Source of the DNA: Octopus vulgaris
Taxonomy: Eukaryota
Direction: 5' to 3'
Assembly (NCBI GenBank): GCA_951406725.2
Contig: OX597836.1
Location: 45,136,001 to 45,200,000 of the forward strand
Length of the DNA stretch: 64,000 nt
The translations under genes and the position numbers were made by a program. The notes beneath the pieces are model-generated. The model was given only the letters and a program-made list of their open reading frames with translations, had not been told where the DNA came from and ran no database searches. The stretch's first letter is position 1, and every line of letters starts with the position of its first letter. Of the stretch, positions 3,435 to 64,000 are shown in pieces.

Positions 3435-3480
<46 letters not shown>

Positions 3481-61202: not shown

Positions 61203-61379
61203 TTTAAAATTTAGATTTATTTACACTAAATAATATCATGCAATAATAAAAAAAGTTATTATTTATTTTGTTTCTTTCTTTTAACATAATTTCTGTCTTG
61301 TAGTAAATTTGTGAATACGGAAATGTGGCTTCAGAATAATCTAGAAACCTAGCTCTGTTTAATTCGGCCACCTATCGGC

Positions 61380-61403
61380 CTTTTTATCTTAGGACTCATC
61401 ATG
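61380..61403 (+). other. TCT/5'TOP-like first exon ending ATG|gtaagt (ribosomal-protein-type gene or snoRNA host)
   Basis: c-ctttttatctt-aggactcatc-ATG then perfect donor gtaagt; oligopyrimidine start about 20 nt before an ATG-only coding exon end. Confidence 0.6.
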
Positions 61404-62241
61404 GTAAGTCCTCGTCTCATTCGATTGTGTTTTGTAATCGCTAAACATCGATATTTATTTCAACTTTAAATCGAGCATAAGATATGTATTTTGTATCTTG
61501 TAAGAGTCTAGTACATATATGAAGAGAAATTTTGTAAAAATATTGTTTAGTTTTGTGAATTTAATTGCAAAAGAAATGTGGTAAGCTGTGCTTTTTCCTT
61601 CATCTATTTTACAATTTCTCACTTTTTTTAAATTTTAAGGTGGAATTTAGTAATTATTGGATTAATTTCAATTATTGCAAAAGAATTACCATCTCAGAAA
61701 AAAAAAATGTTATTTGTGTGTCTTTATATAATGTGTATATATGTATGTATAATATATATATATGAATTATGTGTGCACACGTGTATATACACTCATGTCC
61801 CAGGGTGTATATGTGTAGTGAATGTAAGATATATTTATATAATTCTATACTTTATAGCAATATTTTTTGAAGTCTTCAAAGACTTGACCAAGCGGTCCAT
61901 ATATTTATCCCTAAAAATGGATAGATTTATCTTGGCAAGATTTGAATTCAAAGCAAATAGGGACGTAACTTAAATACGGAAAGTGTTTAAGTAAAAAAAT
62001 CGTAAAATGTAAACTGGCAAAATATATTTATCCTAAATGCGATACAAAATAAGTTTGAGTAATAAATCAATGGTTAGGGTTGCAGGCTCTCATGAGAACT
62101 TCCCTTCGGCATTCTAAAATACCTATATCGAAAGAATGGCCTTCCTTGATGTCCGTCTGTTAAATATGTGAAGCTTTTTCGAGTGACAATGAAAACAATT
62201 TGCCTGTCCCTTTTTTATAACCTTTCTGATAAAGTCCTTAA

Positions 62242-62445
62242 CCCTTCGTTACCAACCCGGCTAAAACCGACTCTGGCTCTGAGGTCTTGTTATAAGTATT
62301 GAATTAAAATCTTCTGCCAAACCTTAGTCACAATCTATGTTCCCAACACTAGCTTAATGATGACGAAGTTCTTTTACTAAATTCTTTGTTATATTTAGAA
62401 TTATTTGAAAGAAACGGAGCATCTCAAAATAGAGTAACGAAAGGG
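62242..62445. mobile_element. piggyBac-type MITE, monomer of the same family (partial copy also at about 27855-28060)
   Basis: TTAA|CCCTTCGTTAC ... GTAACGAAAGGG|TTAA, reverse orientation relative to 1117-1832. Confidence 0.8.
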
Positions 62446-63320
62446 TTAAACGATCGCAACATAATTTTCCTGTGCGCACATCCACCCACACACAAACATG
62501 TGTGTATATAAAATTATAGTTCCAGTCATTGGGTTGCTGCATGGTAGCACACCACTCTGAAGATTATTAAATTGGACGGAATTCACGGGCCTATTATAGT
62601 AGTCGCACGTTGTGACTGTACTAAAAAAACCACATGGTTTCGAAGAGGAGTTTTTAATCACAGCCATACCTGCGCCTTGGGGTCGATGTAATCGACTTAA
62701 TCCGTTTGTCTGCCCTTGTTTGTCCCCTCTGTTTAGCCCCTTGTGGGCAATAGAGAAATATATATATGTATGTGTTTGACGATATAGAGTATATGAACTA
62801 GGGGCTTTCTTACTCAGTAAAACGTCTGAGCCATTGTATGATTACATGAAATCACAATGGGAGACCGTAGTCCTTGAGAACTTTGCCACTACTGGAACGG
62901 CATGGAATTTGTTCGATCAGGGCTGATGTATATCTAACAATTTGTCTATCCTCTGAAGATTTGCAGTACTTAATTATTTGATAAAAGCCAATGTTTTGTA
63001 TAGAAGAGTGATTGGCAGTAAAAATATCCCCAAAATTATTTTAGTTATAAATTATATTATCGTTGTAATAAAATTTGCTTAATATTAATTTACATGAGCA
63101 AGTGATAGTCTTTCCAAAAAATAGTAAATGTTCCCAGAAATGGTTGGAAGTTATAAAAAATGAAATGTCTTGGGTGGAAATGAAGTTATCCTGAAGTGCT
63201 CCATGTAGCAATGTAGGGGAGAGGGTTAATGTGGTACTGGTAGGGGACAAGGAAGAAGCGATCAAAATGTTTTCCAGCAATGTACAATACTTGAGATCCT
63301 GGATCTGTTCTAAAACAATT

Positions 63321-63382
63321 GACTATGATGACACGTGTTGGATGTGATTGTCTGTGAATTCAATCCCTTGGCTGTCTGAGTC
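63321..63382 (+). ncRNA. Box C/D snoRNA, SNORD53/U53-like guide for 28S rRNA 2'-O-methylation
   Basis: Box C ATGATGA at 63325-63331, box D CTGA at 63376-63379, terminal GAC/GTC stem. The 12-nt TCCCTTGGCTGT just before box D is complementary to conserved 28S ACAGCCAAGGGA. Confidence 0.8.
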
Positions 63383-63683
63383 CACTTTATCTCACATTGT
63401 CCCTGTGTTGATAGTGAGGATAAGGGTCCCGTTGACTGTTTTAATCATAATTTGATAATTGCTTTTTTTTTTTTTACTTAGTTCCTGGAAGAATTCAAAC
63501 ATTTTTATTTTTCAATAATGTCCAAGTGTGTGTGTATGGGTTACTTAAGGGCCAGTACTTACATTGTACCTCAGTTGCGGACTTGAGACAATCGTGAGAT
63601 GGATAAACTACTTTTTTAGGCATGGCCTTTTTGAGTTTCAAATCTACCGATGGCTTTATCCCTCGGGGTCGATAATATAGGTA

Positions 63684-63861
63684 CTACTTAAGAAGGGTGG
63701 TCCCGGTGCGCGCATCCGAGCTAGCTAGTCGATCCTACAACGACCACCTAGCAAAATAAATAAAATACAAAATGATTTTTACACAAAGTAAGGATCGACT
63801 AGTCACGACTAGCTTGTGCGACTACGCGAGTGTGCGCCCCGGGACCACTCTTCTTAAGTAG
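63684..63861. mobile_element. GC-rich palindromic MITE with TA TSD
   Basis: TA|CTACTTAAGAAGGGTGGTCCCGG ... CCGGGACCACTCTTCTTAAGTAG|TA. Confidence 0.85.
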
Positions 63862-64000
63862 TACCAATTTGTGCAAGTAGGAAAGGAAACCTCTGAAGTT
63901 CCAAATTGACGGCTTAATTTGCGTTTAACACGCATCCGCATATTTTCTCCCTTTTGCGTCTGGACATCTTCATTTGGCAGGATGACCGAAATGTTCTTCG

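Follow-up and report, generated by a model that had tools for sequence, protein, structure and literature searches.

Whether a short stretch of octopus DNA with box C/D features is a working guide gene for rRNA methylation, and which gene houses it, was addressed in a window of 64,000 nt from Octopus vulgaris (contig OX597836.1, positions 45,136,001 to 45,200,000; all plain position numbers below count from the first base of this window). A sequence-only reading had proposed an intronic box C/D snoRNA with a SNORD53-type guide at 63321-63382, about 100 nt upstream of a splice acceptor, and had given WDR43 as the host of its vertebrate counterpart. Two further copies were found in the genome, and the element in the window is therefore called copy 1.

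Anatomy of copy 1 and its match to 28S rRNA

The canonical C and D boxes and the short terminal stem were all found where the earlier reading had placed them (Table 1), and copy 1 is as compact as it had claimed, at 62 nt by count. The terminal stem (3-4 bp; GAC/GTC) is in kink-turn register with a one-base offset. The fold of copy 1 was no better than that of shuffled sequences (z 0.36), and its external stem was not significant (98 of 300 shuffles were as good). The internal motif TCTGTGAA is common to copy 1 and the diverged copy 3. A D′ or accessory guide sought in copies 1-3 against rRNA gave only G-U-rich pairings at chance level, and copy 1 is, as judged from its sequence, a single-guide form.

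Table 1. Features of the window around copy 1.
Feature	Position	Strand	Basis
RPL7A exon 1, from TOP-like pyrimidine tract (61379-61390) to ATG (61401-61403)	61379-61403	+	gene model
RPL7A intron 1, 3,395 nt, running 798 nt beyond the window edge	61404-64000	+	gene model
434-nt segment with a 93%-identical duplicate in intron 2, which bears copy 2	63032-63465	+	alignment
Candidate SNORD53/snoR37-type box C/D snoRNA, copy 1 of 3	63321-63382	+	Rfam RF00325 and guide test
Copy 1 stem, 5′ strand, GAC	63321-63323	+	sequence
C box, ATGATGA	63325-63331	+	sequence; exact RUGAUGA match
Candidate degenerate D′ (GTGA, 63344-63347) and C′ (CTGTGA, 63352-63357)	63344-63357	+	inferred box assignment
Guide, 12-nt antisense to 28S 3457-3468	63364-63375	+	match to own 28S
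D box, CTGA	63376-63379	+	sequence; exact CUGA match
Copy 1 stem, 3′ strand, GTC	63380-63382	+	sequence
Poly-T/TAG acceptor-like site, T13 run ending in TAG at 63481	63464-63481	+	sequence; right edge of duplicated segment

For the guide test, rDNA was taken from the same genome (contig C20), with 28S numbered from the first base of the Rfam LSU match. The guide (TCCCTTGGCTGT), which abuts the D box as proposed, pairs perfectly over its 12 nt with the octopus 28S in all four rDNA copies examined. Under the D+5 rule for box C/D guides given in PMC5519232, base G63371 pairs with 28S C3461, which confirms the placement of D+5 on the first C of GCC against the species' own rDNA. Among the 509 CTGA motifs on both strands of the window, only that of copy 1 is preceded by at least 11 nt of adjacent perfect 28S antisense (next best, 10), and among the 31 C-box/D-box pairs in the window copy 1 has 12 nt of antisense and the next best 9. 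The simple chance expectation for such a guide is about 3e-4 per D box. In the rDNA itself, the Rfam matches span 4,890 nt (28S) and 2,643 nt (18S), the model lengths being 3,401 and 1,831 (L011 and L015, contig C20).

The identity of the target site was set by the spacing between guide sites. In the octopus 28S, the U36C site A3316 and C3461 are 145 nt apart, and the same distance separates sites 3213 and 3358 of chicken 28S (PMC2653536), human A3703 (PMC2653536) and C3848 (bioRxiv 10.1101/2021.07.15.452550), and Arabidopsis 2221 and 2366 (PMC8053127), as reported in these sources. From C3461 to the U52 site U3517 there are 56 nt, as between the Arabidopsis snoR37 sites 2366 and 2422, reported there as mapped by RiboMeth-seq (PMC8053127). 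By these two spacings C3461 equals human Cm3848 (SNORD53) and Arabidopsis Cm2366 (snoR37), and the label of a SNORD53-type guide can stand. The equivalent site is reported as methylated in plants and humans (PMC8053127; bioRxiv 10.1101/2021.07.15.452550); in the main text of the octopus ribosome preprint (PMC13321053), a term search returned no mention of methylation or snoRNA.

The whole window gave nothing against Rfam at the gathering threshold. A permissive scan of its last 6 kb gave a full-length match (model positions 1-78) to RF00325, SNORD53_SNORD92 (clan CL00063), at 63320-63383, with 31.3 bits and E 0.0023. The expected SNORD53/SNORD92 kinship was thus recovered, but below the family gathering cut-off of 46 bits, and for this reason copy 1 is classed as functionally homologous to the guide family and not as an Rfam-threshold member. 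Copies 2 and 3 scored 33.1 and 35.0 bits; a genome-wide RF00325 search, in which 59 of about 345,000 candidates were scored, returned five matches with copies 3 and 2 ranked first and copy 1 absent. Rfam matches to miRNA families were rejected as TA/TG repeats. As a gene type, the element at 63321-63382 is almost certainly a real SNORD53/snoR37-type guide gene.

RPL7A as the host gene

A gene model over the window and downstream DNA (contig C23) gave RPL7A, with seven exons, GT-AG borders and a 265-aa open frame. Two of the six coding pieces tested matched Pfam Ribosomal_L7Ae, and exon 4 is identical over 73 aa to RPL7A (chain G) of PDB 9EHO, described as an octopus ribosome (PMC13321053). The host of copy 1 is RPL7A, not WDR43. 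The RPL7A model also bears out the proposed intronic position downstream of a TOP-like first exon, in which a pyrimidine tract precedes an ATG followed directly by the GT of the intron. Among the long open frames of the window, the 16 of 23 scanned against Pfam gave none over cut-off.

The claim that copy 1 lies about 100 nt upstream of an acceptor at 63481 was not supported. The T13 run and TAG are present, but the gene model sets the intron-1 acceptor 798 nt outside the window, 1,420 nt downstream of the copy 1 D box, and splicing at 63481 was not seen. Among the eight joints listed from the assembled contigs of four runs, presumed to be RNA, none lies at 63481 and none leads to exon 2. Modest evidence for the modelled junction comes from an X1 contig that begins at exon 2, where its unaligned letters agree with the last bases of exon 1 over 6 nt, a shared G included. 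The contigs were compared over a stretch that does not take in exon 1 itself. Because the runs are only presumed to be RNA, their depth was not used for ranking the parts. The preferred position of human C/D snoRNAs is reported to be some 50 nt upstream of the branch point (PMC5519232). With 1,420 nt between it and the 3′ splice site, copy 1 is far from such a position.

A short element with inverted ends in intron 1 (63680-63865) was covered at very high depth by each of the four runs, the putative DNA run among them, and looks like an inserted MITE. Intron 3 contains a tandem array of about 3 kb with a unit of about 180 nt (L004:5060-8090).

Copies, neighbours and competing explanations

A box-plus-guide pattern gave three matches in the 2.8-Gb genome, all on the sense strand of RPL7A introns 1-2, and none in the reversed control. 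Copies 1 and 2 differ at 3 of 62 positions within the snoRNA and at 26 of 372 outside, which is not clearly fewer inside, and the three differences spare the C box, the D box and the guide. As copy 2 lies within a 434-nt, 93%-identical duplication, it says little on selection. The flanks of copy 3 could not be aligned, while its C box, internal motif, guide and D box are kept and its changed stem (AAC/GTT versus GAC/GTC in copy 1) still pairs. The guide of copies 1 and 2, at 12 nt, is one pair longer than that of copy 3. Copy 3 is the nearest of the three to its 3′ splice site (520 nt), and it alone has a significant external stem (matched by 3 of 300 shuffles). The runs of organisms B and C came from near-identical relatives (e.g. 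13 substitutions and 7 gaps over 450 nt). Two other candidates were rejected: an H/ACA RNA immediately 5′ of copy 1, whose fold was not better than shuffles (z 0.91), and a SNORD92-type sister guide, which gave three pattern matches (control 0) with a guide of 9-11 nt and unclear stems.

Scanning by one fixed set of rules (C box with no more than one mismatch, CTGA, stem of at least 3, antisense of at least 10 nt) detected 10 C/D elements with a guide in the 24 kb of RPL7A introns on the sense strand, none in antisense and one in 220 kb of flanks. These 10 comprise three U53-type elements, two with the U24 5′ guide (C1938), four with the U24 3′ guide (C1924) and one U36C-type element, which matched SNORD36 at 37.4 bits, above the cut-off of 30. 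The U24 target sites C1924 and C1938 are 14 nt apart in the octopus 28S, and the two U24 guides sit on separate snoRNAs (L003:4381-L005:2159, contig C23); the second snoRNA of intron 1, past the window edge, is of U24 type. All 10 scanned C/D elements lie at least 356 nt from a 3′ splice site.

Rfam added one SNORA50-like element and two SNORD103/U54-like elements (L003:8279-8350 and L004:1253-1324), whose C box is degenerate, with two mismatches, and whose external stems are long. Their 5′ guide is of SNORD103 type, with 9 nt to the octopus 18S (G802), and their 3′ guide is U54-like but degenerate; a third U103-like copy at L003:9335 is truncated (model positions 15-77 only). Two H/ACA-shaped copies (L003:9001-9138 and L004:134-271) have two hairpins and H and ACA boxes (z -3.6 and -4.8). 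The one copy scanned gave no Rfam match, and a pocket search found no target for this element, the same search having missed the target of the SNORA50-like element too. RPL7A introns 1-4 thus hold 15 intact snoRNA-like elements (2, 8, 2 and 3) and one truncated, and none was found in introns 5-6. Nearly every one is present in 2-4 local copies, with duplicated segments of 100-440 nt at 89-97% identity, and the clusters appear, from this pattern, to have been built by short local duplications. Another cluster was seen on contig C21 (L154:3394-4752), where SNORD15 (53.8 bits), SNORD52 (39.2) and a snR60/Z15-like element (27.7) lie within 1.4 kb on one strand.

In the best explanation, which draws on established box C/D biology, copy 1 would be co-transcribed with the RPL7A pre-mRNA, its C/D kink-turn would bind the core proteins, and trimming of the intron would leave a product of about 60 nt that directs fibrillarin to 2′-O-methylate 28S C3461, the base opposite the fifth guide nucleotide before box D. 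Given the second snoRNA in intron 1 and the far splice site, release would likely proceed by splicing-independent assembly and an internal cut, or via a snoRNA-ended intermediate. With two snoRNAs in intron 1, exonucleolytic trimming alone would leave a snoRNA-ended RNA unless it is internally cut, as described in PMC11028025. We put the probability that copy 1 works as such a guide in RPL7A intron 1 at about 0.72. More tentative, and on balance doubtful, is the extension that RPL7A forms a polycistronic cluster of 15 C/D and H/ACA elements in four introns, mostly active and released independently of splicing through endonucleolytic cutting or as snoRNA-ended long RNAs. If this were true, intron 1 would yield a snoRNA-ended RNA of about 1.1 kb from copy 1 to its U24-type neighbour, and the U24/U36 content common with vertebrate RPL7A would reflect a host-snoRNA link kept since the bilaterian ancestor.

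Three other explanations compete with a working copy 1. It could be a silent or minor duplicate, the working guide being made from copy 3 in intron 2, with copies 1 and 2 as spare products of local duplication. The abundance of local copies among the RPL7A snoRNAs points this way, as do the truncation of at least one neighbouring duplicate (U103-like), the lack of excess conservation between copies 1 and 2, and the shorter distance of copy 3 to its 3′ splice site. It is mainly because copy 3 alone has a significant external stem that copy 1 is doubted as the principal source of the RNA. However, the lineage of copies 1 and 2 retains the boxes, the stem and a 12-nt guide in sequence that has otherwise diverged from copy 3, and the few differences between copies 1 and 2 avoid the C box, the D box and the guide. 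We regard a silent copy 1 as rather unlikely. That these motifs came together by chance in the AT-rich sequence of the intron could be read from the sub-threshold Rfam score and the unremarkable folding, but the guide is unique among the CTGA motifs of the window, the genome pattern found three matches against none in the reversed control, and the equivalent cytidine is methylated in plants and humans according to the sources cited above. With a diverged third copy and a strand-specific cluster, chance is very unlikely, to the point of being negligible.

In the last alternative, TAG 63481 would be a true acceptor, used alternatively or recursively (it could serve a short frameshifting poison exon, for instance), and would split intron 1, so that copy 1 would lie about 100 nt above it as the one snoRNA of its intron. 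At 14 of 15 pyrimidines (modelled acceptor, fewer than 12) it is the most pyrimidine-rich acceptor-like site of intron 1, the spacing would fit the vertebrate preference, and hosts of intronic snoRNAs are reported to be prone to alternative splicing leading to NMD (PMC7038934). Against it, none of the eight listed joints touches 63481, one X1 contig spans the site unspliced and another connects exon 2 with the last bases of exon 1, the increase in depth at the T run also occurs in the putative DNA run X14, and the site is missing from copy 2. We regard this alternative as improbable; minor use of 63481 may occur, since contigs drop rare variants and the site is so rich in pyrimidines.

With copy 1 read as a working guide, it represents an annotation missed at the Rfam default cut-off and predicts a conserved rRNA methylation in octopus. 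It adds to a known guide family, and the crowded introns are the more interesting part. Animal hosts are reported to carry mostly one snoRNA per intron (PMC11028025), and the four multi-occupied introns of RPL7A provide a clear test case for the processing of such introns. A literature search on this locus, outside subscription journals and supplements, found no title; some of the snoRNAs may be marked in genome annotations already.

Comparison with known guides and host genes

Like vertebrate SNORD53/U53, copy 1 is intronic, has a D-box-adjacent guide to the same 28S cytidine, the boxes and a short stem, and is one of several copies in its host gene; the human SNORD53 family is described with three expressed members in one host (PMC8178906). 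The stated link of U53 with this site and with WDR43 was upheld by reports of chicken U53, which targets 28S-C3358 from WDR43 (PMC2653536), and of mouse Snord53 in Wdr43 (PMC10332580). In contrast, all three genome pattern matches place the octopus guide in RPL7A. Copy 1 is also about 14 nt shorter than the 78-position model, scores under its cut-off, and lacks the accessory element of RF00325 that pairs just upstream of the target (consensus GGUUUCGC); the best alternative accessory pairing in copy 1, 9 bp and mostly G-U, was equalled by 180 of 500 shuffles.

Plant snoR37 shares the 3′ guide and its target (Arabidopsis 25S C2366, as given in PMC8053127) but, unlike copy 1, has a second guide, to the U52 site (U2422). 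A metagenome set of at least 119 stretches, with 79 loci examined, was selected by the guide, had no reversed control and includes chance bacterial-looking matches; among the matches listed from it, 32 of the 62 distinct ones have the second U52-site guide and 5 of 62 the accessory element of the vertebrate consensus. In octopus, a separate SNORD52-like RNA was found on contig C21 (39.2 bits, E 2.2e-5), so that the U52 and U53 guides are split between RNAs as in vertebrates, and the second guide was likely lost from an ancestral double-guide RNA. A stricter U52 pattern gave no match in the genome; a looser one gave 25 matches versus 12 in controls, and three of them were taken further. On contig C11, two copies, 10.5 kb apart (L155:2955-2995 and L156:5445-5485), of a C-box element with a U52-like antisense motif are followed by TG repeats; the element has a weak SCARNA7 match and is possibly a C/D scaRNA. 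In one of the 79 metagenome loci, an RPL7A-like gene is preceded, at a distance of about 250 nt, by a U52+U53 double-guide snoRNA (L053:2163-2221). The gene contains in-frame TAA codons, from which a ciliate-like code was inferred; this neighbourhood may be a coincidence.

Chicken RPL7A is listed as the host of U24 and U36 (PMC2653536). Octopus RPL7A likewise holds the U24 guides, with sites 14 nt apart like 2112/2126 reported for chicken, and a U36C guide, although here the U24 guides sit on separate RNAs and U53-, U103/U54- and SNORA50-type elements are extra. The match in U24/U36 bears on the stability of host-snoRNA links; snoRNA mobility is reported as ongoing (PMC3511168), and sponge U24 is reported to sit in RPL5 (PMC3412847). 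The occupied octopus RPL7A introns have 2 to 8 elements each, versus one per intron in the chicken table (PMC2653536). In this they resemble the intronic H/ACA clusters reported in Drosophila (PMC3089462) and the multi-snoRNA introns said to give snoRNA-ended long RNAs (PMC11028025), with at least two snoRNAs per intron; unlike the Drosophila clusters, those of octopus RPL7A are mostly C/D, with H/ACA elements mixed in.
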